From the NCBI GenBank assembly GCA_002069725.1, contig MWBW01000004.1, forward strand, positions 21,636-85,635: DNA of 64,000 nucleotides, in the 5' to 3' direction. Both the position numbers and the translations under genes were made by a program. The notes beneath the pieces were generated by a model, which made no database searches, was not told where the DNA came from, and was given only the letters and a program-made list of their open reading frames with translations. The stretch comes from Firmicutes bacterium ADurb.Bin248 (GTDB lineage Bacteria > Bacillota > Clostridia > Christensenellales > CAG-138). Shown here piece after piece: positions 3,254 through 15,708 of this stretch. Each line of letters opens with the position of its first letter. Position 1 is the first letter of the stretch.

Positions 3254-3695
3254 GGTGTTCCCTTTCAAAAAACATAAGCCAAAACAGTAACAATGCCCGC
3301 GTCGGACGCGCCGCACGATTCCGTGCGAAACGCTCCCCGCGGGCATAAAAAAGCGCGGTCAAAACCGTGCTGCTCTTATACGTGAATCGTTGAAGCAGTT
3401 TCTCAGGCGTATCCGTCGGAAGGCGCGCGAAACGCTCCCTCCGCACCCGTATTCAGTTGGGGCGAACCCGGACCCCCGAAACCGACATCAACAATCCTCC
3501 TTTTCTTATTCGCAAACAGTATATCAGATCGGCCGGAATTGTCAAGCGCGCGGCCAAAAATCCGCCTCGCGCGATCGGTTGCGCAGGACGGAACCAAGTT
3601 TCGTTTTTCCGTTGACACGCGAAGTAAAACACGGGATGATGATAGCGTCAAGTCATTCTGTTTCTATTATGCCATAGGATCACGGAGGCGCTGCC

Positions 3696-5474
3696 ATGAA
3701 GCGAACCGGCGGAGAAATCGTCGTAGACGCGCTCATTGAAGAGGGCGTGCCGTACATACTCGGCATACCGGGCCACGGCGTCATGGGGCTGTTCGACGCC
3801 GTGCGAAGGGCGCAGGACAAGATCCGGTACATCCAGGTCAAACACGAGCAGGCAGCCGCAGCCATGGCGGACGGCTATTTCCGCATGAGCGGGAAGCCGC
3901 TGGCCTGCTTTTCCTCCATCGGCCCCGGCACGCTCAACGCCTGCATCGGCCTTGCGACGGCGTATGTGGACTCGACCGCGTTTCTCCAGCTCTGCGGCGA
4001 CACGCACGTCCACATGAAGGGCGCGGGCGTATTGCAGGAGGTCGAGCGCTATCAGGACGGCAACATATCCCGCGCGCTCGAGCCGCTCGCCAAGCGCGTC
4101 TGGCGCGCGGAGTCCGCGGGACAGCTCCCGCGCATACTCCGCCGTTCGTTCTCGCTGATGAAGAACGGCCGCCCCGGTCCCTGCGCCGTGATGCTGCCCA
4201 TGGATGTGCAGTGCGCGGCAATCGAGGCGGGCCCTTGCCGCTCCGCCGAGGCGGATTCCCGCCCCTGCGCGGACGAAGAGAGCATCGCGCGCGCGCTCGA
4301 ATTGATGAAAGCGGCCAGACGCCCCGTCATACTCGCGGGCGGCGGCGCGCTGCGCGCGCGGGCAGGCGAATCGATCGAAGCGCTCGCGGAGCAATGGGGC
4401 GCGGCCATGGTGACCACGCTCGCCGCCAAAGGGACGGTGCGCGAAACGCACCCGCTCTGCGGTTTCCACACCGGCTCGAAGGGCACGCCGGTGGGCCTCG
4501 CGCTGTGCAGGAACGCGGATGTGATACTCGCCCTGGGCACGCGCTTCGCGGACGAAACGGCCTGCTCGTACCGCAAGGGCGCAAGCTTCAGTTTCCCGGA
4601 CACGAAGCTCATCCACGTCGACATCGACCCCGCGGAACTGGGCAAGAACTACGCGGCGGACGTCGCCATCGCCGCCGATCTGACCGACGCGCTTGAAAAG
4701 TTCAGCGCAGCGTTCGCAGCGCCCGTCGAGCGCGCGGAATACCGCGCGGAAATCGCGGCGCTTCGCGCGGACTGGGCAAAGGAACTTAAAGAGAAACGCG
4801 CGGTCAGGACAGAAAAGCTCACGATCTCGCAGCTCGTGGGCGCGCTCAACGAGCATCTGCCCGCGGACGCCGTCATCGCGACCTCCTCGGGCAACACGCA
4901 GGCGCAACTCTTTCAGGAATACTGCTACGGGGAACGATACTGCAACCTTACGACGGGCGGCTTCTCCACCATGGGCTGGGCCTTCCCCGCGGCGCTCGGC
5001 GCGAAGCTCGCGCGTCCTGAGAGGACAATCGTCGCGCTCGCGGGCGACGGGGATTTGCTGATGGTGCTCCAGGAGCTTTCGACCATGGCGCAGTATGACA
5101 TCCCCGTCGTCGTGGTGCTCGCGGACAACGCGGGCTGGATGGCCATCAAGGATCTGCAACTCGACGCGCTCGGCGAGGGCGCCGCGTTCGGCAACGATTT
5201 TCTCAGGGACGGAACGCCGTACTCGCCGGATTTTGTGAAGATCGCCGAGGCGTTCGGCATCCGGGCGGAGCGCATATCGAAACTCGGGGAATGCGCGGGA
5301 GCCATATCGCGCGCGGTCGCGGCAAACGCGCCGTATTTGATCCATGCCGACGTGTGCCGGGATTACCCGTACAGCGGCGGCAAGGCGTACGGCTGGTGGG
5401 ATGTGCCCGTACCGGAGTACGAAACGGCTCTGCGCGCGGCCTACGAACGCGCGCGCGGCGAAGAGACCGTCTGA
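3696..5474 (+). CDS. thiamine-pyrophosphate enzyme, acetolactate-synthase/IolD/Xsc-like, 592 aa
   Basis: N-terminal Pyr domain (GIPGHG...HEQAAAAMADGY...GPGTLN) and C-terminal TPP motif GDGDLLMVLQEL...VVVLADNAGW. RBS GGAGG. Confidence 0.85.
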   Translation: MKRTGGEIVVDALIEEGVPYILGIPGHGVMGLFDAVRRAQDKIRYIQVKHEQAAAAMADGYFRMSGKPLACFSSIGPGTLNACIGLATAYVDSTAFLQLCGDTHVHMKGAGVLQEVERYQDGNISRALEPLAKRVWRAESAGQLPRILRRSFSLMKNGRPGPCAVMLPMDVQCAAIEAGPCRSAEADSRPCADEESIARALELMKAARRPVILAGGGALRARAGESIEALAEQWGAAMVTTLAAKGTVRETHPLCGFHTGSKGTPVGLALCRNADVILALGTRFADETACSYRKGASFSFPDTKLIHVDIDPAELGKNYAADVAIAADLTDALEKFSAAFAAPVERAEYRAEIAALRADWAKELKEKRAVRTEKLTISQLVGALNEHLPADAVIATSSGNTQAQLFQEYCYGERYCNLTTGGFSTMGWAFPAALGAKLARPERTIVALAGDGDLLMVLQELSTMAQYDIPVVVVLADNAGWMAIKDLQLDALGEGAAFGNDFLRDGTPYSPDFVKIAEAFGIRAERISKLGECAGAISRAVAANAPYLIHADVCRDYPYSGGKAYGWWDVPVPEYETALRAAYERARGEETV

Positions 5475-5486
5475 AAGGAGGACGCC

Positions 5487-6689
5487 ATGTCGGGCAAGCT
5501 CAAATTCGTACTCGTCGGCTGCGGGCGTATCGCTTCGCTGCACGCGGCGGGCTACGAAAACCACCCGGACGCGGAACTCTACGGCGTGTGCGACAAGAAC
5601 AAGGCGAGAGCCGAGGAGTTCGCGAAGGAATACGGCGCGGGAAAGGTCTATACGGATTATCGGGACGTGCTCGCCGACCCCGAAGCGGACGCCGTGGAAC
5701 TGCTCGTGCCGCATCACCTGCATTGCGAGCTGGCCGTGGCCGCGTGCGAGGCGAAAAAGCACGTATCCGTGCAGAAGCCCATGGCGCTCAACCTCGCCGA
5801 GTGCGATTTGATGATCGGCGCCGCGAAGCGCAACGGCGTGAAGCTCAAGGTATACGAGAACTTCGTGTTCTACCCGCCCTACCAGCGTGCCAAGGAGTTG
5901 CTCGACGCGGGCGAGATCGGCGCGCCGGTGTCGATGCGCTATAAAATGAATAACGGCGGCCTGTGCTCCGCGAACCGGCCGGGCGTTGAGGCGCGCGTAA
6001 AGCAGGCGAAGCAGGATACGGGCGTGGAGCTCCCCGCGACGGGCTGGCCCGTGGACGCGGCCTCGTGGCTCTGGCGGCTCAACGACACGCTCGCGGGCGG
6101 GGGCCCGCTCGTGTTCGACGACGGCTACCACAAGTTCTCGCTCATCACGCACATGTTCGGAGATGTCGAGAAGGTCAGCGCGTGGATCGACTGCTCCCCC
6201 GTGCTGCCCGGCGTGTATCAGGACTGCCCGGCCATGATCATGTGGAAGCACAGGGCGGGCAGGCTCTACGGCGTGATGGACATCGTGGATTCGCCCGACA
6301 TGTACGTGAACAGCAAGTATTATACCTGCGACGAGCGGCTCGAACTGACGGGCACGCGCGGCGTCGTCTGGGTCACACGCTGCACAGCGAGCATGATGCC
6401 CGAGGTCGCGCCGGTCGTGATGTACCGCGACGGAAAGCTCCATGAATACCGCGACATGCCCTGCGACTGGGCGGATTCGTTCAGGAATTCAACGCAGGAT
6501 TTCATCGAGGCGATCAAGCTCGACCGCGAGCCCGTGCTTTCGGGAGAGTGCGGGCGCGAGGTGCTGAAGTTCGCGCTCGCCGCCATCGAGAGCGCGCGGC
6601 AGAAGCGTGAGATCTATCTCGACGAATACGAGGATAAGGCCCTGTCAAAGAAGCGCGGCGTGCTCGGCATCTTCGGCAAAAGGAGCTGA
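5487..6689 (+). CDS. Gfo/Idh/MocA-family NAD(P) oxidoreductase, 400 aa
   Basis: Rossmann start KFVLVGCGRIASLH and ...HVSVQKPMA motif. RBS AAGGAGG. 12 nt after the upstream stop. Confidence 0.85.
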   Translation: MSGKLKFVLVGCGRIASLHAAGYENHPDAELYGVCDKNKARAEEFAKEYGAGKVYTDYRDVLADPEADAVELLVPHHLHCELAVAACEAKKHVSVQKPMALNLAECDLMIGAAKRNGVKLKVYENFVFYPPYQRAKELLDAGEIGAPVSMRYKMNNGGLCSANRPGVEARVKQAKQDTGVELPATGWPVDAASWLWRLNDTLAGGGPLVFDDGYHKFSLITHMFGDVEKVSAWIDCSPVLPGVYQDCPAMIMWKHRAGRLYGVMDIVDSPDMYVNSKYYTCDERLELTGTRGVVWVTRCTASMMPEVAPVVMYRDGKLHEYRDMPCDWADSFRNSTQDFIEAIKLDREPVLSGECGREVLKFALAAIESARQKREIYLDEYEDKALSKKRGVLGIFGKRS

Positions 6690-6693
6690 AGCC

Positions 6694-7524
6694 ATGGAAG
6701 CCGATCGCCTGACAGGAGCCGCGGCGGAGATCCGCAAGCTCACCATACGCGCCATGGCCGCGGCGGGCTACGGCCACATCGGCGGCAGCATGTCCGTCTG
6801 CGAGGTTCTGGCCGTGCTCTACGGCGCAGTCATGCGCATCGACCCCGCGCGGCCGGATTGGGAGGAGCGCGACAGGCTCGTCTTGAGCAAGGGCCACTGC
6901 GGCCCCGCGCTCTACGCGGCGCTCGCGCATTACGGTTATTTCGACCCCGCGCTCCTTTTGACGCTCAACGCGAACGGCACCCTCCTTCCCAGCCACTGCG
7001 ACCGGCTCAAGACCCCGGGCGTCGATCTGAGCACGGGTTCGCTCGGGCAGGGCGTATCGCTGGGCCTGGGCGCGGCCCTCGGCTGCCGCATGAAAGGGCT
7101 TTCGAGCCGCGCATACGTCATCGTCGGCGACGGAGAGCTTCAGGAAGGCCAGGTCTGGGAGGGCGTGCAGTTCGCCGCGCACAGGAACCTCGACAACTTC
7201 ACGCTCGTCGTGGACGCGAACAAGCGCCAGCTCGACGGTTACGTCGAGGACATCTGCCGGGGCTTCGACCTCGAGAGGAAGTTCGGGGCGTTCGGCCTCG
7301 CGGCGCTCGAAGCGGACGGGCAGGACTGCGGCTCTATTCTGGAGGCTCTCACGAAAGCGAAGGAGTGCGGCCGCCCGGCGGCGGTCATCCTCGACACCGA
7401 GAAGGGACAGGGCTGCTGCTTCGCGGAAACGGTTCCCTTCAACCACTACATGAACATATCGTCCGAGATGGCGGAAGAAGCCTGCCGGGAAATCGACCGA
7501 AAGCTTGCCGAGGTGAGGCGATGA
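6694..7524 (+). CDS. transketolase, N-terminal (TPP-binding) subunit, 276 aa
   Basis: GHIGGSMSVCEVLAVLY, SKGHCGPALYA, GSLGQG, VGDGELQEGQVWE. ATG at 6694 after AGGAG. Confidence 0.9.
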   Translation: MEADRLTGAAAEIRKLTIRAMAAAGYGHIGGSMSVCEVLAVLYGAVMRIDPARPDWEERDRLVLSKGHCGPALYAALAHYGYFDPALLLTLNANGTLLPSHCDRLKTPGVDLSTGSLGQGVSLGLGAALGCRMKGLSSRAYVIVGDGELQEGQVWEGVQFAAHRNLDNFTLVVDANKRQLDGYVEDICRGFDLERKFGAFGLAALEADGQDCGSILEALTKAKECGRPAAVILDTEKGQGCCFAETVPFNHYMNISSEMAEEACREIDRKLAEVRR

Positions 7525-8480
7525 GCGCGCTTCGATACGAACAGGATACGATCGAGATGCGCGCGCGCTACTGCGACGCGCTCGTCGAGGCCGCGCGCGA
7601 AAATCCCCGCGTCGTCGCCATGGATGTGGATACGAGCGCCTCGATGGGAACGGCGCCGTTCTACGCGGCGTACCCCGAGCGCGCGATCAACTGCGGCATC
7701 ATGGAGGCCAACGCCGTGGGCGTGGCGGCGGGGCTCTCGAGCGTGGGGTACGTGCCGTTCCTGCACGCGTTCGGCGCGTTCGCCTCGCGGCGCGCGTACG
7801 ATCAGGCGTTCCTCTCGTGCGCGTACCAGAACCTGAACGTGAAAATCATCGGCATGGATGCGGGCGTCACCGCGACCGTCAACGGCGGCACGCACATGCC
7901 CCTCGAGGACATGGGCGTCATGCGCTGCATCCCCGGCATGACCGTCGTCGAGCCCGCGGACGGCGCGATGCTGCCGTACCTCGTGCGCCATATGGCGCAA
8001 ACCTACGGCTGCTTCTACCTGCGCTTCGGGCGAAAGAAGCTCATGCGCGTCTATGGGGACGGAGAGGATTTCACGCTCGGCAGGGCGATAAAGCTGCGCG
8101 ACGGGCGCGACGCGGCAATTGTCGCCTGCGGCATACTCGTGCACGAATCGCTCGTCGCGGCAGAGCTGCTGCGGCAGGAGGGCATCGAGGTCGCGGTGCT
8201 CGACATGCACACGGTAAAGCCCGTAGACGCGGACGCCATAGAAGCGGCGGCAAGGCTGTGCGGCGCGATCGTCACCGCGGAAAACCACAATGTGATCGGC
8301 GGCCTTGGCAGCGCGGTCGCCGAAGTGCTGGGCGAGCGCCGTCCCGTCCCGCTCGAGCGCGTGGGCGTGAAGGAGAGCTTCGGCGAGATCGGCACACAGG
8401 ACTATCTGATGAAAAAATTCGGCCTGACGGCCGGGGACATCGCACAGGCCGTCAAACGGGCCGTGCGGAGGAGGAATTGA
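7521..8480 (+). CDS. transketolase, C-terminal (pyrimidine-binding) subunit, 319 aa
   Basis: ATGA overlap with the upstream stop. INCGIMEANAVGVAAGLS and FGAFASRRAYDQ motifs. Confidence 0.9.
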   Translation: MSALRYEQDTIEMRARYCDALVEAARENPRVVAMDVDTSASMGTAPFYAAYPERAINCGIMEANAVGVAAGLSSVGYVPFLHAFGAFASRRAYDQAFLSCAYQNLNVKIIGMDAGVTATVNGGTHMPLEDMGVMRCIPGMTVVEPADGAMLPYLVRHMAQTYGCFYLRFGRKKLMRVYGDGEDFTLGRAIKLRDGRDAAIVACGILVHESLVAAELLRQEGIEVAVLDMHTVKPVDADAIEAAARLCGAIVTAENHNVIGGLGSAVAEVLGERRPVPLERVGVKESFGEIGTQDYLMKKFGLTAGDIAQAVKRAVRRRN

Positions 8481-8481
8481 C

Positions 8482-9102
8482 ATGCGCGTCGCCATCGTCA
8501 GCGAGGTTTCAGCGAAGGAGAAAAACGCGGCCATACTGGAGGCGCTCGAGCCGTTCGGGCACGAGGTCATAAACGCCGGCATGACGGCGCAAGGCGGCGG
8601 GCCGGAGCTGACCTACATCCACACGGGCTTCATCGCGGCGTCTCTTTTAAACCTCGGCGCGGTTGATCTGGTCGTGGGCGGGTGCGGCACGGGGCAGGGC
8701 TTTGTGAACTCCGTCATGCAGTATCCGGGCGTGGTCTGCGGGCTTATACTCGATCCGCTCGACGCGTTCCTCTTTTCGCAGATCAACGCGGGCAACTGCG
8801 TGTCCCTCGCGCTCAACAAGGGCTACGGCTGGGCGGGCGAAACGAACCTCGCCTACGTTTTCGAAAAGCTGTTCGAAAGGGAACCCGGCGGCGGTTTCCC
8901 GCCGCACCGGAGCGGAAGCCAGGCGCAGAGCCGCGAGCGGCTTCGCGCGGTATCGAGGGCAACGCATAGGTCCTTCGGGGAGATCGTAGCGGCGCTCGAT
9001 CCTGAGATCGTCCTGACTTCGCTCTCGCACGCGCCGTTTCGCGCCCTCGTTTCGGAGCGCGGCTGGCGCTGCTTCGAGGGCTTCGGGGAGGGCGCCGTAT
9101 GA
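8482..9102 (+). CDS. RpiB/LacA/LacB-family sugar(-phosphate) isomerase, long form, 206 aa
   Basis: MRVAIVSE... and GGCGTGQG motif. Starts 1 nt after the transketolase stop. Confidence 0.8.
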   Translation: MRVAIVSEVSAKEKNAAILEALEPFGHEVINAGMTAQGGGPELTYIHTGFIAASLLNLGAVDLVVGGCGTGQGFVNSVMQYPGVVCGLILDPLDAFLFSQINAGNCVSLALNKGYGWAGETNLAYVFEKLFEREPGGGFPPHRSGSQAQSRERLRAVSRATHRSFGEIVAALDPEIVLTSLSHAPFRALVSERGWRCFEGFGEGAV

Positions 9103-9854
9103 TCCAGTCTTTGGAGCGCGGCGTCGCGGCGCTGGTGTTCCTCTCAAAGCGCGTCGCCGCGGGCGTGACCGAGGTCGCCGAGGAGCTCGGCGTCAACAAG
9201 AGCACGGCGTTTCGCATACTCGAAACGCTCGAAAGCGCGAACATGGTCTCCCAGGACAGGGACACCGCCAAATACCGGCTCGGCCCCGGCATACTGCGCC
9301 TTTCCGACCGGTTCGCGCGCAACCTCGACATACTCGCCGCCGCGCGGCCGATTATGGCCAGGCTCGTTGAGACGACCGGCGAATCCGCGCACCTGTGCAT
9401 GCTCAGCTCCGACGCGGCCGTGGTCATCGAGCAGGTGATGACCGATTCCCGCCTCGCCGTGCACGCGAAAATAGGCAACGCGGAACCCGCGCACGGTTCG
9501 TCCGTGGGCAAGTGCCTGCTCGCCTACTGCCCTGCCGAGCAGAGGGAGGCGATACTCGGCCGCCTTGGCTTCGAGCCTTACACGAAAAAGACCATCGCAG
9601 ACGCAAAAACGCTCAGAAAAGAACTCGAAGTCATCGCCGCGCGCGGCTATGCGCTCGACGACGGGGAGATCAGCGAGGACGTCGTCTGCATCGCAGCGCC
9701 CATATTCAACAGCGCGGGCGCGGCGCCTTACAGCCTCGCCATCTCCGGTCCGCGCAGCCGCATTTCCGGCGAGAAGCGCGTCGAGCGGCTCGCGCGCTTC
9801 GTGATGGGCGCCGCAAAAAAGCTCTCCGAGCAGCTCGGCTATTTCAAGGATTAG
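9099..9854 (+). CDS. IclR-family transcriptional regulator, 251 aa
   Basis: IQSLERGVAAL...VTEVAEELGVNKSTAFRILETL HTH plus an IclR effector domain. ATGA overlap with the RpiB-like gene. Confidence 0.85.
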   Translation: MIQSLERGVAALVFLSKRVAAGVTEVAEELGVNKSTAFRILETLESANMVSQDRDTAKYRLGPGILRLSDRFARNLDILAAARPIMARLVETTGESAHLCMLSSDAAVVIEQVMTDSRLAVHAKIGNAEPAHGSSVGKCLLAYCPAEQREAILGRLGFEPYTKKTIADAKTLRKELEVIAARGYALDDGEISEDVVCIAAPIFNSAGAAPYSLAISGPRSRISGEKRVERLARFVMGAAKKLSEQLGYFKD

Positions 9855-9870
9855 CCGCGAGGCGGCTTTT
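9853..9870 (+). terminator. weak stem-loop after the IclR gene
   Basis: AGCCGC-GAG-GCGGCT followed by TTT. Short stem, so possibly only partial termination. Confidence 0.3.
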
Positions 9871-9909
9871 GCAGCGAAAAAACAGAGCATACGAAAGGAG
9901 GAACGCACT

Positions 9910-11403
9910 GTGTTGAAAAAACGGCTCGGGTACGCGTGCGGCGATATCTACGGCGGAGGGTCCTTCCTGATATTCAGCATGCTGTTCATGAACTTCCTTG
10001 TGCTCGTCGAGGGGATGCCCGTCGTGCTCGCATCCGCGGTGATCTTCGCGGGCAGGCTCTGGGACGCGGTCACCGATCCCATCATGGGCAATCTGACCGA
10101 CAGGACGCGCTCGCGCTTCGGCAGGCGGCGCGTCTACTTCCTCGCGGGCATACCGCTGGTGTTCGCCTCGTTCGTGATGCTGTGGTACTCGTTCGGTATG
10201 CAGAGCGTGATGCTCAAGGTGTTCTATTATATCTTCGCCTACATGTTCCTCGACGCGGCGTTCACGGTCGTGATGGTGCCCTACAACGCAATTTTGCCCG
10301 ACATTACCTGCGACTACAACGAGCGCACGCGCTTCACTGCCACGCGCATGGCCTTCTCCGCGGGCACGGCGATACTCGCGGCGGTCGTGCCGAGCATACT
10401 GATCAAGTCCATCGGCGGCGAGGTCAACGGTCCCGCGCAAAAATCCGGCTACCTCGCGATGGGCCTCGTATTCGGCGCGATCTTCGCGCTCGGGTGGCTG
10501 TTCACTTTCCTGGGCACGAAGGAGCGCGAGGATCTGCCCGAGCCGGAGCCCTTTTCGATCAGGGAATGGTTCTCCGTGTTCCGCAACAAAACCTACCGCA
10601 TTTTTCTTGGCATATTCATCTTCGTGCAGGTCGCAATCGATCTGCTGCTCGCGATTTTCATATTTTATATTGACATTGTCGTTCTGCAGTATAAGAATTA
10701 TGAGGTAGTCATGGGCGTACTGCTCGTGTGCCAGCTGCTGTTCATGTTCATGCACAACAAAATCGCGCAGAAGAAAGGCAAGCACTACCCGCTCTTTGTC
10801 GGTATACCCGTATGGATCGCGGCCTCCGCAGGCTTTGCGTTCGTGTCGAGCACGACGCCGCTGTGGGTCATACTCGCGCTCGCGGTGCTCATCGCGGCGG
10901 GCGCGGCGGCGGGCAACCTCTCGACCTGGGCGATGCTCTCGGACACCTGCGAAGTGGACGAGCTCATCACGGGCAAGCGGCGCGAGGGCATTTACAGCGG
11001 CTTCACAACGTTTGCGCGCAAATGCGCCTCGGGCGCCGCGGTGCTGGTCATGGGCTTCGGGCTGCAGCTCGCGGGCTTCGACCAGCTCGCCTACAACCAG
11101 GCGCGCGCGAACCCGGGCTTCGATCCCGCGGCCTACGCCGAATCGAGCGCGGGCAGCACGATCAAATGGATGTTCGTCGTGATCCCCATCGTGTTCCTGC
11201 TCGCGGCGCTCGCCTTCGCGCTGCGCTACAAGCTCGACAACAAGCGCTTCGAGCGCGTGATCGGCGGCATCGAAAAACTCAAGGCCGGGCAGCCTTCGGC
11301 GGCGTTCTCCGCCGAGGAACTTGCGGACTTCGAGCTGCTCACAGGCAGGAAGGCCGGGGAGCTCTGGCCGGTCAACGGAAATCCGCCCGCGGGCGCGGGC
11401 TGA
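9910..11403 (+). CDS. GPH-family (glycoside-pentoside-hexuronide) / MFS cation symporter, 497 aa
   Basis: GTG start after AGGAGG. GYACGDIYGGGSF and DAVTDPIMGNLTDRTRSRFGRRR GPH signature. Multiple TM segments. Confidence 0.85.
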   Translation: MLKKRLGYACGDIYGGGSFLIFSMLFMNFLVLVEGMPVVLASAVIFAGRLWDAVTDPIMGNLTDRTRSRFGRRRVYFLAGIPLVFASFVMLWYSFGMQSVMLKVFYYIFAYMFLDAAFTVVMVPYNAILPDITCDYNERTRFTATRMAFSAGTAILAAVVPSILIKSIGGEVNGPAQKSGYLAMGLVFGAIFALGWLFTFLGTKEREDLPEPEPFSIREWFSVFRNKTYRIFLGIFIFVQVAIDLLLAIFIFYIDIVVLQYKNYEVVMGVLLVCQLLFMFMHNKIAQKKGKHYPLFVGIPVWIAASAGFAFVSSTTPLWVILALAVLIAAGAAAGNLSTWAMLSDTCEVDELITGKRREGIYSGFTTFARKCASGAAVLVMGFGLQLAGFDQLAYNQARANPGFDPAAYAESSAGSTIKWMFVVIPIVFLLAALAFALRYKLDNKRFERVIGGIEKLKAGQPSAAFSAEELADFELLTGRKAGELWPVNGNPPAGAG

Positions 11404-11436
11404 AGCAGCACATCAAAAAAATACAGGAGCGGTGAA

Positions 11437-12960
11437 ATGAGCGAAATCAGGAAGTTGAAGTTTTTCTCCGGCGGGAAGTGGCTCGAGACCGAAAGCGGCG
11501 CATACATGGACGTTTACGATCCGAGCACGGGCGAGGTGCAGGCGCGGGCGCCGCGCTGCACGCGCGCCGAGGTCGAGGGCGCGATCAGGGCCGCGAAGGA
11601 AGCGTTCCTCCCGTGGGCGCAGACGCCCGTCATGAAACGCGTGCAGGTGCTGTACCGTTTCCGCGACCTCGTCGTGGCGCACATGGACGAACTGACGGAG
11701 CTTTGCGCGCGCGAGCACGGCAAGGTGTGGGGCGAGGCGCAGGGCGACATACTCAAGGTCAAGGAGCCTGTGGAGCTCGCCTGCGGCGTCCCGTCCCTTC
11801 TCATGGGAGAAAGCCTGATGAACACCTCCGCGGGCTACGACACCGTGCTCTACCGCGAGCCCGTGGGCGTATATGCGGGCATCGTCCCGTTCAACTTCCC
11901 CGGCATGATCCCGATGGGCTGGATGGCGCCCCTGTGCGTCGCCTGCGGCAACACGCTCGTCATCAAGGCCGCCTCCATGACGCCCATGACCGCCATGCGC
12001 CTTTGCGAGCTTTGGCAGGAAGCCGGGCTTCCGGACGGCGTGCTCAACCTCGTGACCTGCTCGCGCAACGAGGCGGAGCTTTTCCTCACGCACCCGGACG
12101 TCGCGGGCGTGAGCTTCGTGGGCTCGACCTCGGTGGGGCTGCACGTCTACTCGACCGCCGCCGCCCACGGCAAGCGCGTGCAGGCGCTCTGCGAGGCGAA
12201 GAACCACGGCCTCGTGCTCGAGGACGCCGCACTCTCGCGCACGGCCGCGGGCATCATCAACTCCGCGTTCGGCTGCGCGGGCGAGCGCTGCATGGCGCTG
12301 CCCGTCGTGGCGGTGCAGGAATCCGTGGCGGACGAGCTGATACAGCTTCTCGTCGAATACGCGAAAAACCTCAAGATCGGCCCCGCCTACGACAAAACCT
12401 CCGAGCTCGGGCCGCTCGTGACGGCGGAGCATCGCGCCTCGGTCGTGCGCTGGATCGACAAGGGCGTCGCCGAGGGGGCGAAACTCGTGCTCGACGGGCG
12501 GAACGCCGTCGTGCCCGGCTACGAAAACGGCTTCTATCTCGGGCCGACGATATTCGACCATGTGACGGAGGATATGTCCGTCGGCCGCGACGAGATTTTC
12601 GGGCCGGTGCTGTGCGTCAAGCGCGTGAAGGACTTCGGGGAAGGACTCGAAGTCATGAACGCGAACCCGTTCGCCAACGGCTCGGTCGTCTATACGCAGA
12701 GCGGGCATTACGCGCGGGAGTTCGCGCTTCGCACGCACGGCGGCATGGTGGGCGTGAACGTGGGCATCCCGGTGCCGGTGGGCATATTCCCGTTTTCCGG
12801 GCACAAAAACTCATTCTTCGGCGACCTGCACGCGCTGGGCAAGGACGGGGTTCGCTTCTACACCGAAACCAAGTGCGTCACGACGACCTGGTTCGACGAA
12901 CAGGAGCGCAGGAAAACGCGGGTCGATACGTGGGACGGCTCGATCGGCGGGAGCACGTAA
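11437..12960 (+). CDS. mmsA: CoA-acylating methylmalonate/malonate-semialdehyde dehydrogenase (MmsA/IolA type), 507 aa
   Basis: ALDH fold with FNFPGMIPMGW, VGSTSVG and catalytic Cys in FGCAGERCMALP, characteristic of the MmsA clade. Confidence 0.88.
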   Translation: MSEIRKLKFFSGGKWLETESGAYMDVYDPSTGEVQARAPRCTRAEVEGAIRAAKEAFLPWAQTPVMKRVQVLYRFRDLVVAHMDELTELCAREHGKVWGEAQGDILKVKEPVELACGVPSLLMGESLMNTSAGYDTVLYREPVGVYAGIVPFNFPGMIPMGWMAPLCVACGNTLVIKAASMTPMTAMRLCELWQEAGLPDGVLNLVTCSRNEAELFLTHPDVAGVSFVGSTSVGLHVYSTAAAHGKRVQALCEAKNHGLVLEDAALSRTAAGIINSAFGCAGERCMALPVVAVQESVADELIQLLVEYAKNLKIGPAYDKTSELGPLVTAEHRASVVRWIDKGVAEGAKLVLDGRNAVVPGYENGFYLGPTIFDHVTEDMSVGRDEIFGPVLCVKRVKDFGEGLEVMNANPFANGSVVYTQSGHYAREFALRTHGGMVGVNVGIPVPVGIFPFSGHKNSFFGDLHALGKDGVRFYTETKCVTTTWFDEQERRKTRVDTWDGSIGGST

Positions 12961-12998
12961 AAGGGACGCAGATTATATCAACGATAAATGACTTCCGG

Positions 12999-13043
12999 CA
13001 AGGGCGTGCTATTGCAGAGTGTTGCGGCGCGCCCTTGTTTTTG
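12999..13043 (+). terminator. rho-independent terminator ending the 3696-12960 operon
   Basis: CAAGGGCG ... CGCCCTTG stem followed by TTTTT. Confidence 0.6.
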
Positions 13044-13100
13044 GTATGCTCGAAAGGGGCGGAACGGGAATTTGACACGCATACAGGACGAGGTATCCCA

Positions 13101-14057
13101 ATGTACGAAAGTATGAAGCAAATGCTTGACGGCGAATATGGCATACGGGCACTATCTTTGCAGGAAATTCCTTCGGGCTGGTCCGCGTCCGCCTGGAAAG
13201 TGCATTCCGGCTGCGGCGACTATTTCCTAAAGGTGTATGACAAGCGCAAACCCTCCGCAAAAAGCTGGATTGCGCGAATCGACAGCTATATGCCGGTTGT
13301 CCTTTGGCTGCATGGGAACACGGAGCTTCGCAGTAAAATGACCGCGCCGATTCTCGCCGGGAACGGATCCTATAAAATCGAAGATGAAGCTTATTTATAC
13401 ATGGTATTTCCCTTTATCGACGGGCAAACCATATGCGATGAAAAACTGAGGCCGGAGCAGACGCGTACACTTGCGCGGATTGTTTCGGAATTGCATTCCT
13501 ATGGCGCCGAGATACCGGTGCCCATAAACAGCTTGAAGGAAACTTTCGACGTTTCGTTTTGCATGACTTTGATCGACAGGCTTGGGAATATGCATGATCC
13601 CTCCCTTTTGAATGACGCGCTGGCGCCCCATATGGACGCGCTTGCCCGCACGGCCGCATCCCTTCAGGAAACGGCGGCGCTGCTGCGCAATTCCAAAGTA
13701 CGGTATGTCTTGTGCCACACGGACATTCACGGCTGGAATCTTATGCAGGCGGAAAGCCTTGTCCTGATCGATTGGGAGGGTTTGAAGCTTGCGCCGGCGG
13801 AGGCCGACCTCTTTTCGTTTACCGGAACGTTCTTTTTTGAATACGCATGGGAAGATTTCATTTCCGTTTACCGTGCGGCGCGCAAGGGCTATCGGGTCAA
13901 CGCCGACGCGATGCGGTTTTACAGATTGCGGCGCAGGCTGGAGGATATTGACGCGTTCGTCGAGAGCATCCTGTTTGACAATCTCGCGCAGGACGAACTG
14001 AATCGATCGCTTTATTACCTGCGGCGGGAATGCGAATTGCTGAATGCCACGCGCTGA
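13101..14057 (+). CDS. aminoglycoside/antibiotic phosphotransferase-family (APH-like) kinase, 318 aa
   Basis: Only the 3' third of track ORF 11478..14057 is real. ATG at 13101 after AGGACGAGG. Catalytic loop CHTDIHGWNLM and LIDWEG motif. Codon usage is markedly more A/T-rich than neighbours. Confidence 0.8.
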   Translation: MYESMKQMLDGEYGIRALSLQEIPSGWSASAWKVHSGCGDYFLKVYDKRKPSAKSWIARIDSYMPVVLWLHGNTELRSKMTAPILAGNGSYKIEDEAYLYMVFPFIDGQTICDEKLRPEQTRTLARIVSELHSYGAEIPVPINSLKETFDVSFCMTLIDRLGNMHDPSLLNDALAPHMDALARTAASLQETAALLRNSKVRYVLCHTDIHGWNLMQAESLVLIDWEGLKLAPAEADLFSFTGTFFFEYAWEDFISVYRAARKGYRVNADAMRFYRLRRRLEDIDAFVESILFDNLAQDELNRSLYYLRRECELLNATR

Positions 14058-14170
14058 CGGGAACGGCCCGCTTTATCAAATTCGTTTAGTCCGGAACGGG
14101 GAACGGAAATTTTCGGACCGTTTTGAAGCTGAGCATTGCTTATACAGTCTGAATTATGGGGAGAGATCTT

Positions 14171-14659
14171 ATGGGCGAATTCATAGTAGCCGTAAAATCA
14201 TTGATTGTGTACAATAAAAAAGTGCTGCTCCTGCAAAAGTCGGGCGGCGAATGGATGCACAATGAGAATAAATGGGAGTTCGCCGGCGGCTGCCTGGAAT
14301 TCGGCGAAAGCCTGTCGCAGGGGCTTGCGCGGGAGGTTTTTGAAGAAACCGGATTGACCGTTCGCACGGACAGATTGTTATGCGCGTCGACCCATGTGCC
14401 TGCGTCCCCGGCCCATCAAAAGCAATTTGTTTTTCTTTACTATCTGAGTCGCGCGGATACCGATGAAGTAAAGCTTTCCGGGGAGCATAAGAATTTTTTA
14501 TGGGCCTGCCGCGAGCAAATGATCGACCTGTTGGATAAACCTGTATGGGACGACCTCGTTTCCAATGCGATACCGGATACGTTGGACATCGAATCGCGCG
14601 TGGCGTCAGCGAATGGGCACGGCCTGCGCGGCAAACCGCTCAGGCATGCGGGGAAATGA
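14171..14659 (+). CDS. NUDIX hydrolase, 162 aa
   Basis: Nudix box GGCLEFGESLSQGLAREVFEETGL. ATG at 14171 has the GGGGAGAG RBS, whereas the ATG at 14156 has none. Confidence 0.85.
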   Translation: MGEFIVAVKSLIVYNKKVLLLQKSGGEWMHNENKWEFAGGCLEFGESLSQGLAREVFEETGLTVRTDRLLCASTHVPASPAHQKQFVFLYYLSRADTDEVKLSGEHKNFLWACREQMIDLLDKPVWDDLVSNAIPDTLDIESRVASANGHGLRGKPLRHAGK

Positions 14660-15051
14660 GCGAGGTTATGGATACGTTCACGAAAAATGAGTTAAACGAG
14701 GCCCTTCGCGCGATATCTTCAACGCTGAACAAGAGCGAGAAAGCAAGGCTGAAATTGAAAGCGGGGACGTTTCAGCACGCGATGACGACGCAGGGGATCG
14801 AGGCTTACGCCATCGCGACGGAACTGATAAAAAGAGAATCCGAAACGATTACAGCGGGTAGCTTATTTGAACAAAAATATGCGAAAGAAGATTTGGAAAA
14901 GGCTCTTCAGGCTCTGGCCTCGGCAACCGGCAGGGTTGAGAAAGCGCTGCCCAAATTTGCCCCGGGCACTTCCCAGCACACTTTGGCCGTGCGCAGGATC
15001 AAGGCGTTCCATACCGCTGCGGAATTGATAAAAAGGGAATTGGGCTCATAA
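14656..15051 (+). CDS. hypothetical helical protein with an internal ~50-aa duplication, 131 aa
   Basis: ATGA overlap with the NUDIX stop. Two repeats: ...LNKSEKARLKLKAGTFQHAMTTQGIEAYAIATELIKRE and ...VEKALPKFAPGTSQHTLAVRRIKAFHTAAELIKRE. Confidence 0.6.
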   Translation: MSEVMDTFTKNELNEALRAISSTLNKSEKARLKLKAGTFQHAMTTQGIEAYAIATELIKRESETITAGSLFEQKYAKEDLEKALQALASATGRVEKALPKFAPGTSQHTLAVRRIKAFHTAAELIKRELGS

Positions 15052-15090
15052 GAAGGGTTCACGGAAATTGGCGCAACAGGCGGTGATGAA

Positions 15091-15576
15091 ATGGAATCGT
15101 TACAATATCAGGGTTGGAGTTTTGAATTCGACAAGGCGGCGACACGGGGTTATTATGCCTCGCACCGCGACGAATGCACTTGCGCTTCATGCCGAAATTT
15201 TCATAAGACCATTGAAGAAATGCCGCCGGATGTGAAAAGGTTCCTTGAAGGGTTTGGAATCGACATCGATCATCCTATTGAACAGATGTCGGTGATCGCG
15301 CTTAAAAAAGAAAATTTAGTCGAACAGCAGGTTCAATACTGCGTGAAAGGGACCGCAATTTCAGAGGAAGGGCACGAAATCGGTATCGGGCCTGTTCAAA
15401 TTGCTCCGCTAAACAAAAACGCAATGGCAAATCATGAAATGGAGGAACCGTATTTCGGTTTTGCGTTATATAACATGTATTTTCATTGGACGGTGGAGGA
15501 CGATATCGACGAAGTCTACCCTGAGCAGCGAAGTCTGATGCAAAAAATCAAAGCGTTCCTGTCTCGGGCAAAATGA
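15091..15576 (+). CDS. hypothetical protein, 161 aa
   Basis: ORF with natural composition and a C..C motif (ECTCASCRNF). Same A/T-richer codon usage as the three genes upstream. No family recognised. Confidence 0.55.
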   Translation: MESLQYQGWSFEFDKAATRGYYASHRDECTCASCRNFHKTIEEMPPDVKRFLEGFGIDIDHPIEQMSVIALKKENLVEQQVQYCVKGTAISEEGHEIGIGPVQIAPLNKNAMANHEMEEPYFGFALYNMYFHWTVEDDIDEVYPEQRSLMQKIKAFLSRAK

Positions 15577-15708
15577 GCATAGTATGACAGCCCCGGCGGG
15601 ATCGGCGCCTCGGGCAGCGGCGCGTCCAAGCCCGCGAGAGGGCCGATGAAGATTTTCCGCAAGCGCGGCGAGGAGAACGGGATGCCGCATACTCCCTTAT
15701 TCAATCCG

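Follow-up and report, generated by a model that had tools for sequence, protein, structure and literature searches.

What does an anaerobe degrade with an operon that pairs a transketolase with enzymes of the inositol type and encodes no kinase? The question is raised by a 64,000-nucleotide stretch of Firmicutes bacterium ADurb.Bin248 (Clostridia; Christensenellales; CAG-138; assembly GCA_002069725.1, contig MWBW01000004.1, positions 21,636 to 85,635 of the forward strand), the whole of which we call the window. At window positions 3696-12960, eight open reading frames, all on the + strand, encode a thiamine diphosphate (ThDP) enzyme, a Gfo/Idh/MocA dehydrogenase, both subunits of a split transketolase, an RpiB-superfamily isomerase, an IclR regulator, a GPH symporter and an MmsA/IolA aldehyde dehydrogenase. 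Domains were assigned by Pfam and NCBIfam profile searches, comparing each bit score with the curated cut-off of the model. Our tentative answer, to which we give slightly less than an even chance, is an operon under IclR control that degrades, without a kinase, a cyclitol of the inositol type or something very close to it, taken up in non-phosphorylated form. The proposal draws on the gene set, its conservation, the family placements of the enzymes, changes in the transketolase pocket and patterns of co-occurrence, and from these we infer the substrate, every reaction, the order of the steps and a ring opening that dispenses with the IolE dehydratase.

The eight-gene operon is real and its arrangement is not due to chance, as the gene set recurs in 85 loci (from 80 species-representative genomes and five contigs from protein look-ups, with the ThDP enzyme as query). 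In the window, the intergenic gaps are 12, 4, -4, 1, -4, 55 and 33 nt, and a GGAGG-type ribosome-binding site precedes every one of the eight starts. The two overlaps of 4 nt are ATGA junctions, one between the transketolase genes and the other between the isomerase and IclR genes. A promoter-like site, TTGACA-17-GATGAT (3612-3640, + strand), was picked up 56 nt upstream of the first gene by a consensus scan only, and a search for inverted repeats (operators) across 3340-3700 gave none. At the other end stands a predicted intrinsic terminator (12997-13043, + strand), whose hairpin (12997-13039; -29.1 kcal/mol, z = -3.3) is followed by UUUUU; a simple consensus scan overlooks it because the stem and loop are long. 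A preliminary description of this DNA, made from the letters alone, had reported co-directional genes with tiny gaps or ATGA overlaps (-4 to 55 nt by our measure), a clean terminator and the lack of a kinase, and these observations all stand. No kinase lies within the operon, and the APH-like kinase gene past the terminator belongs to an islet of lower G+C content.

Among the 85 loci, the ThDP gene is linked to the isomerase gene in 68, the dehydrogenase in 67, the IclR regulator in 51, the transketolase pair in 50, the GPH symporter in 40 and MmsA in 32. Gene order differs between loci; the transketolase genes always adjoin the isomerase gene, and the ThDP enzyme is often coupled with MmsA. 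No kinase or aldolase recurs beside the cluster in these loci, and on this ground the idea that the operon is a fragment of a known one is rejected.

The first gene (3696-5474) encodes a ThDP enzyme of 592 aa with TPP_enzyme_N, M and C domains, a member of the acetolactate-synthase (ALS) superfamily that falls under every curated cut-off: ALS 371 against 538 bits, IolD (TIGR04377) 315.6 against 715, Gcl 272 against 791 and Xsc (NF005713/TIGR03457) 266 against 620. Genuine IolD proteins of related genomes reach 800-926 bits on the IolD model. Aligned with annotated IolD, Xsc, Gcl, IlvB and AruI proteins from plasmid records, the enzyme is 26-33% identical to these references and 27-31% identical to the three IolD proteins among them. 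Its C-terminus, GWWDVPVPEY, aligns with WWDV(A/G)VPEV of the three IolD proteins. A tail of this type is found in none of the Xsc, Gcl, IlvB or AruI references, and its WWDVP(V/I)P core is kept in all 81 full-length members of the window enzyme's family; searched alone against the PDB, the IolD tail gave no match. In a maximum-likelihood tree, a branch with 96/97 support parts AruI, Xsc, Gcl and IlvB from IolD, the window family and a 40%-identical proteobacterial group, and the two Xsc sequences cluster on the AruI, Gcl and IlvB side. Because of these scores, the tail and the tree, the enzyme is, as far as sequence can place it, a family of its own that is related to IolD but belongs to neither IolD nor Xsc. 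Consequently, the IolD-like tail first noticed by eye is confirmed by alignment and the suspected kinship with IolD is kept, whereas actual IolD membership and an Xsc-like identity for this ~590-aa protein are both abandoned. We propose that the enzyme performs the C-C cleavage, or ring-opening, step.

The family comprises at least 100 protein clusters at 62-86% identity, and those listed all come from uncultured Clostridia and bear only the names 'thiamine pyrophosphate-binding protein' or 'acetolactate synthase'. An orthologue (at least 61% identity) occurs in 5 of 399 evenly sampled genomes of the class, where the next best proteins are ALS-like and 35% identical; this drop indicates that the family is sharply bounded. 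A more distant protein, 40-41% identical and with a WWDFP tail, is encoded on plasmids of Thalassospira marina (L090:12001-21070) and Ensifer adhaerens (L091:12001-22628), next to a HisD-like dehydrogenase, a CUT1 sugar ATP-binding cassette (ABC) system, GMC oxidoreductases, a Gfo/Idh/MocA protein and a sugar-phosphate isomerase/epimerase. These plasmids thus hold a further uncharacterised cluster, in cultured and tractable bacteria.

At the opposite end of the operon, the eighth gene (11437-12960) encodes a CoA-acylating (methyl)malonate-semialdehyde dehydrogenase of 507 aa. It scores 564.8 bits on TIGR01722 (cut-off 448.5) and 455 bits against methylmalonate-semialdehyde dehydrogenase (MSDH) of B. 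subtilis (1T90), to which it is about as close as MSDH family members are to one another. It is 61-65% identical to IolA in the canonical iol operons of related Clostridia, and the motifs GD(V/I/L)LK and GCAGERCMALPVV are identical in the two. A single column differs systematically between 31 cluster-type MmsA and two canonical IolA proteins. The GERCMA motif with the catalytic Cys is kept, and the other basic position of the carboxylate site is Lys in cluster-type MmsA and canonical IolA alike, the residue mapping being approximate. Its assignment as an IolA/MmsA-type enzyme, suggested at first sight, is borne out by both the score above the cut-off and the shared motifs.

The NAD-dependent dehydrogenase (5487-6689; 400 aa, assigned by its Pfam domains) has IolG (TIGR04380) as its best named model, at 127 bits against a cut-off of 355 and with mostly the N-terminal domain aligned. 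Its Lys-Asp-His catalytic residues, K97, D211 and H215, are invariant in 42 homologues. A structure model (predicted local distance difference test score 91.8) has PDB neighbours tied at Z 35-39, including levoglucosan, scyllo-inositol, 1,5-anhydrofructose, SqgA and other sugar dehydrogenases, and the fold therefore gives no substrate. The earlier label 'IolG-like' holds insofar as IolG is the nearest named model, but neither the score nor the structural neighbours carry it further. We propose that the protein acts as a cyclitol dehydrogenase of the IolG-like kind.

The isomerase (8482-9102; 206 aa) belongs to a long, DhuI-type branch of the RpiB superfamily. It passes the cut-off of NF006753 (PRK09273; 199.9 against 137 bits) and stays far below that of classical RpiB (NF004051, TIGR01120; 26 against 135). 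Four PDB members (4u8e, 2ppw, 3ono and 3c5y) match it at 149-159 bits. One of these, 4u8e (gbs1892; 150 bits), we take to be DhuI, the streptococcal replacement for KduI, acting on a non-phosphorylated aldehydo-acid. DhuI is not homologous to the KduI that it replaces, and KduI and IolB share one Pfam family. We propose that the putative isomerase turns an aldehydo-acid into a ketose-acid, as an analogue of IolB and KduI.

Between the isomerase and MmsA genes lie those for regulation and uptake. The IclR-family regulator (9099-9854; 251 aa; HTH_IclR and IclR_C domains) has BhcR (201 bits) and KdgR (151 bits) as its best named models, both under the cut-off. The GPH-family (MFS_2) cation symporter (9910-11403; 497 aa) reaches 265 bits on PF13347 (cut-off 27) and 219 on TIGR00792, just below the cut-off of 231; we propose that it imports the substrate. 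Other loci have CUT2 or Opp-type ABC systems in its place. The nearest PDB entry to the CUT2 binding protein is 4yo7, BH2323 of B. halodurans (187 bits, Z 38.3; next best 118 bits), presumably a myo-inositol complex, although none of the papers searched names its ligand; we treat it as a lead only. Relatives of this binding protein in other Bacillota (30-35% identity) do not adjoin iol genes.

The most distinctive component is the split transketolase, made of an N-terminal, ThDP-binding subunit (6694-7524; 276 aa; Transketolase_N) and a C-terminal subunit with the Pyr and C domains (7521-8480; 319 aa; Transket_pyr, Transketolase_C). The genome holds a separate housekeeping transketolase of 664 aa, so the split enzyme is a dedicated paralogue. 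Numbered by alignment to E. coli TktA, it retains the catalytic His residues, E411, R358, S385 and R520. Two pocket positions have changed in all 47 family members, H461 to Met, Gly or Ala and D469 to Asn, giving NGGTHM for EDGPTHQ. In transketolases, the 2-hydroxyl of the acceptor aldehyde is recognised by D469. Neither the housekeeping transketolase nor the split transketolases that adjoin an FGGY kinase share the window signature, and the latter keep Asp469.

The distribution of canonical iol genes provides a further line of evidence. In the window genome, the best match to IolE scores 24 bits against a cut-off of 290; here and in four other transketolase-type genomes, IolE, IolC over its cut-off and the KduI/IolB family are absent. 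By contrast, five genomes with minimal, transketolase-less clusters have IolC in four, IolD in four and IolE in four, plus one IolE fragment at a contig end, so that IolC over its cut-off is present in 4/5 genomes of this kind versus 0/5 of the transketolase type. Related Clostridia with canonical iol operons give IolE scores of 389-408 bits and IolC scores of 387-400 (the IolD range is that given above). When the initial genomes were joined by 28 more, IolE was found in 5 of 21 with the cluster transketolase and 13 of 17 without it (Fisher p = 0.003, a value that overstates the case because the genomes are related and incomplete metagenome-assembled genomes). The direction of this anticorrelation between the transketolase and iolE/iolC is clear despite that relatedness. 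The suggestion that a two-subunit transketolase and an RpiB-family isomerase replace the IolB, IolC, IolE and IolJ equivalents fits what we find: no IolE, IolC or IolJ, and no KduI/IolB family member in the genome. On the simplest reading, the transketolase takes on the part played elsewhere by IolC and IolJ, in which case the three core enzymes should yield 5-dehydro-2-deoxygluconate or something else that IolC accepts.

Set beside the canonical myo-inositol pathway of Bacillus and rhizobia (iolG/E/D/B/C/J/A), the window operon shares a Gfo/Idh/MocA dehydrogenase, a ThDP enzyme with the IolD tail, an isomerase for an aldehydo-acid and an IolA-type dehydrogenase. It differs in lacking IolE, IolC and IolJ, in a ThDP enzyme that is under the IolD cut-off at 27-31% identity, in an isomerase of the DhuI-type fold family in place of the IolB cupin, and in its split transketolase, IclR regulator and GPH transporter. 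Further, many genomes carry the module alongside a complete canonical iol operon.

These observations suggest the following route. The GPH symporter would import the substrate, which the IolG-like dehydrogenase would then oxidise. The IolD-related ThDP enzyme would cut a C-C bond; the product would be a linear aldehydo-acid like 5-deoxyglucuronate, ending in -CH2-COO-. The DhuI-type isomerase would do the job of IolB and convert the aldose end into a ketose, yielding 5-dehydro-2-deoxygluconate or a close analogue. The dedicated split transketolase would next replace the IolC kinase and IolJ aldolase, transferring a C2 ketol unit to glyceraldehyde-3-phosphate and so producing xylulose-5-phosphate. 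Finally, the IolA-type MmsA would oxidise the remaining acidic aldehyde to an acyl-CoA (acetyl-CoA plus CO2 if the aldehyde is malonate semialdehyde). We propose that the overall logic would make this the carboxylate counterpart of the sulfo-transketolase (sulfo-TK) pathway for sulfoquinovose, which uses SqvD/SftI, SqwGH, SqwI and SqwF or SqwD (PMC9594981, PMC11659671).

Several observations weigh against this proposal. With no IolE orthologue in the operon or genome, the 1,2-dione needed by IolD has no known source, and either the ThDP enzyme would therefore have to accept an inosose, or the dehydrogenase would need an activity beyond that of IolG. The ThDP enzyme might open the inosose, an alpha-hydroxyketone, and eliminate the neighbouring hydroxyl in the manner of phosphoketolase or Xsc to give 5-deoxyglucuronate, a step we infer only. 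The carbon count also poses a difficulty. Transketolase acting on the C6 compound 5-dehydro-2-deoxygluconate leaves the C4 compound 3-hydroxy-4-oxobutanoate, yet MmsA looks like a standard malonate-semialdehyde enzyme. The aldolase of the canonical route cuts the C6 keto-acid into a C3 unit and malonate semialdehyde, whereas to reach malonate semialdehyde by transketolase requires a C5 (or C7) keto-acid; 3-hydroxy-4-oxobutanoate is the carboxylate analogue of sulfolactaldehyde. The mismatch would require that MmsA accept the C4 aldehyde, that one carbon leave at an earlier step, or that the substrate be something other than plain inositol. In addition, the ThDP enzyme matches ALS models (371 bits) better than IolD (316 bits), inositol dehydrogenases are not singled out among the structural neighbours of the dehydrogenase, and neither an IclR regulator nearest to BhcR and KdgR nor a GPH transporter is of the usual inositol type. 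The co-occurrence counts come from related, incomplete genomes and are not independent. The transketolase-less genomes also carry a complete canonical iolG/A/E/D/B/C set; with the upper iol pathway duplicated there, the module must serve a different substrate in those genomes, for example a different stereoisomer, a glycoside of inositol, or a methyl- or deoxy-inositol.

Of the two readings, inositol-type and sulfosugar, between which the preliminary description did not choose, the inositol-type chemistry is retained for its IolD tail, its IolG best model, its IolA-like MmsA and the transketolase/iolE-iolC anticorrelation, and qualified by the missing IolE and a carbon count that stays open by one. 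The ThDP step may be new chemistry. In its strongest form, the IolD-related ThDP enzyme would represent a new reaction class, either an IolE-independent opening of inosose or a cleavage with dehydration by which the -CH2-COO- tail arises. Paired with a transketolase adapted to carboxylates, it would provide the first ATP-free 'transketolase glycolysis' of a cyclitol, a carboxylate twin of sulfo-TK. We regard this stronger claim as doubtful.

Variation among the loci fits a cyclitol front end, with IolE- and IolG-like partners, and a carboxylic-acid product. Loci of the window type have the 400-aa dehydrogenase alone. In four sampled genomes, a divergent IclR gene accompanies an operon for an AP_endonuc_2 protein, a dehydrogenase of 350 aa, the ThDP enzyme, both transketolase subunits, the isomerase and MmsA; the best named model of the AP_endonuc_2 protein is IolE (48.6 bits, far under the cut-off of 290), and IolG is that of the 350-aa dehydrogenase, with a full-length alignment. 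Rumen loci replace the AP_endonuc_2 gene with one for a 451-aa protein, whose only named relative is the sulfoquinovose isomerase SftI (38.7 bits), and have an AraC-type regulator. In one Lachnospiraceae locus from a termite gut (L083:6765-19798), the dehydrogenase and ThDP enzyme stand beside a CUT2 ABC system, a second Gfo/Idh/MocA protein and a cupin, and the usual back end gives way to a beta-keto-acid cleavage enzyme, a fused CoA transferase and an AtoDA-like pair. The cleavage enzyme and CoA transferases of this locus point to a carboxylic-acid product; the locus lies directly downstream of rhamnulokinase and RhaA genes. Minimal loci have the ThDP enzyme, dehydrogenase, isomerase and a transporter only, and some of them adjoin an Opp-type ABC system, a GH29 fucosidase, a DUF4838/GH67N-like protein, a sulfatase and a PIG-L deacetylase. 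The DUF4838 protein, of 626 aa and with a GH67-N-like domain, is encoded downstream of the isomerase in seven loci (for example L087:13836-15716, which is the same as L017). It had no match among PDB sequences, and it may be a glycosidase that releases the substrate.

The best-surviving alternative is a route from uronates, which we nevertheless consider unlikely. Here the substrate would be 4-deoxy-hexosulose uronate (DHU, also DEH), released by pectin, alginate or glycosaminoglycan lyases, or else an oxidised hexuronate. The ThDP enzyme would act as a 2-oxo-acid decarboxylase, the Gfo/Idh/MocA enzyme would oxidise the lactol to the C5 compound OHC-CHOH-CHOH-CH2-COO-, the isomerase would form the ketose, the transketolase would leave malonate semialdehyde and MmsA would make acetyl-CoA. 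Every enzyme would thus perform chemistry typical of its family, and the carbon count yields malonate semialdehyde exactly. The one characterised relative of the isomerase, presumably DhuI, acts on DHU itself; the regulator resembles KdgR (151 bits), GPH transporters carry hexuronides, and the neighbours of some loci include carbohydrate esterases, a rhamnosidase, a sulfatase and the DUF4838/GH67N-like protein. However, these flanking carbohydrate-active enzymes (CAZymes) are inconsistent among loci, and the flanks of four transketolase-type genomes hold a mixture of CAZyme-like and unrelated genes with no lyase and no GH88/105. Of five transketolase-type genomes, four lack GH88/GH105 over the cut-off, with a single borderline match in G172, and all lack the KduI family, so a source of DHU is not evident; nor did the genomes searched yield any unsaturated glucuronyl hydrolase. 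UxaC already serves hexuronates in the genome. The window operon shares with the DhuI/DhuD unsaturated-uronate route of streptococci (gbs1892/gbs1891) an isomerase of the NF006753 family and the expectation of a non-phosphorylated aldehydo-acid, but no DhuD/KduD reductase, 2-keto-3-deoxygluconate kinase or aldolase is linked to the cluster. A uronate route would also leave the IolD-type tail, the IolG- and IolE-like partners and the link to canonical iol genes unexplained. The isomerase probably acts on a 2-deoxy aldehydo-acid rather than on DHU.

Direct cleavage by the ThDP enzyme is improbable. In this scheme, the dehydrogenase would make a 3-keto sugar acid, which the ThDP enzyme would split, with a phosphoketolase/Xsc-like dehydration, into malonate and tartronate semialdehydes; MmsA would take the former, while the isomerase would convert the latter into hydroxypyruvate, used by the transketolase as a CO2-releasing C2 donor. 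The scheme would account for the frequent coupling of the ThDP enzyme with MmsA, the constant adjacency of transketolase and isomerase, and loci in which the transketolase or MmsA is dispensed with. It is also in keeping with gcl-hyi as a known pair of ThDP enzyme and isomerase, with the many sugar C3-dehydrogenases among the structural neighbours of the dehydrogenase, and with a regulator whose best named relatives are BhcR, IclR and AllR. All three of these regulators respond to glyoxylate. However, the required ThDP chemistry has no precedent in the superfamily beyond Xsc, the anticorrelation between transketolase and iolC/iolE would go unexplained, and the literature searched gave no experimental or published support.

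A sulfosugar route, also raised in the preliminary description, is a long shot as well. As a sulfo-TK variant, it would take sulfoquinovose to sulfoacetaldehyde in two rounds of isomerase and transketolase, followed by Xsc-like desulfonation by the ThDP enzyme or oxidation by the MmsA-like enzyme. Its strength lies in the transketolase. A search of the class for DUF4867 (SqvB) led to 40 loci that we examined: the first 20 held only kinase-linked split transketolases, and the second batch included two candidate sulfo-TK/TAL clusters (L151:264-9031 and L154:6123-14608). Both encode transketolase N and C, a classical RpiB of 158 aa (144 bits), an FSA-like and a second transaldolase, an SftI-like isomerase (206 bits) and DUF4867, a content like that of the bifurcated sulfo-TK/TAL clusters described in PMC11659671. 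The window transketolase is 45% identical to the candidate SqwGH of these clusters and NGGTHM (D469N) is common to both, the candidates for SqwGH and SqwI having been picked by cluster content only, as stand-ins for proven sequences. Like sulfo-TK, the window operon follows a kinase-free logic in which no kinase is necessary, places the transketolase N and C genes before that for a PF02502 isomerase (the sqwG-sqwH-sqwI order), and would be expected to yield an X-CH2-CHO aldehyde, sulfoacetaldehyde being isosteric with malonate semialdehyde. The distant SftI-like protein of one rumen variant (38.7 bits) points the same way.

Unlike sulfo-TK clusters, the window operon has no SftI/SqvD, SqvB (DUF4867), YihQ/SqgA, SqwF or exporter, and SftI and DUF4867 are missing from the genome as well. 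Instead, the operon encodes a ThDP enzyme that resembles IolD, a dehydrogenase of the Gfo/Idh/MocA family and an MmsA of the IolA type. Its isomerase is long and DhuI-type, whereas the candidate SqwI is a short classical RpiB that is 27% identical over 108 residues only, which would make the two relatives at the superfamily level alone. The early comparison with sulfo-TK is therefore upheld at the transketolase and fails at the isomerase. Neither a sulfite or isethionate exporter nor a sulfoacetaldehyde reductase recurs in the 85 loci, MmsA is motif-identical to IolA, and the final steps of the termite-gut variant, with its beta-keto-acid cleavage enzyme and CoA transferases, belong to the chemistry of carboxylates. 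Sulfoquinovose is not supported as the substrate, given the ThDP enzyme's Xsc score (266 against 620 bits) and a tail that is IolD's and not Xsc's, the DhuI-type isomerase, and the absence of DUF4867/SqvB and an AsrC-type sulfite reductase from the genome. The tail group is most likely a carboxylate rather than a sulfonate.

NGGTHM is found in split transketolases without sulfo-gene neighbours too. In two other genomes (L176:9143-10871 and L177:9736-11466), it occurs away from iol-like and sulfo-type genes alike; the motif therefore marks a class and is no proof of one substrate. It may be the mark of a broader class of transketolases whose donors are not phosphorylated. DUF4867 itself is present in 72 of the 399 sampled Clostridia genomes. 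Two further clostridial loci (L123:8478-14062 and L116:8444-13911) combine DUF4867 with an FGGY kinase, a FucI-like isomerase and a split transketolase in which Asp469 is retained, in what looks like a kinase-dependent transketolase route for some sugar, distinct from sulfo-TK.

The window operon, then, draws on two known designs, with components of both the iol pathway and sulfo-TK, and the full-text literature that we searched held no paper on this eight-gene set. Its hosts are abundant uncultured Christensenellales and Oscillospiraceae of digesters, the rumen and termite guts. Inositols from phytate and plant lipids are plentiful in the rumen, gut and digester, and their fermentation by strict anaerobes is only partly known. 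If the cyclitol proposal is right, skipping the kinase would spare the cell one ATP for each molecule of substrate, which counts for much in a fermenter. It would also assign functions to the well-defined 'acetolactate synthase-like' family described above, to DhuI-type isomerases outside glycosaminoglycan use, and to a class of split transketolases in which Asn has replaced the Asp that recognises the acceptor 2-hydroxyl. The sulfo-transketolase design would then be more general than sulfosugars. As the enzymes are soluble and of ordinary size, the question is open to direct in vitro work.

Two minor observations concern the window DNA itself. It is found in anaerobic-digester, sludge and wastewater metagenomes from more than 10 studies; none of the sequencing runs listed was an RNA dataset. 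Directly past the terminator, positions 13044-15590 form an islet of 52-54% G+C, against about 65% before it, which lies outside the operon and in which the APH-like kinase gene comes first.

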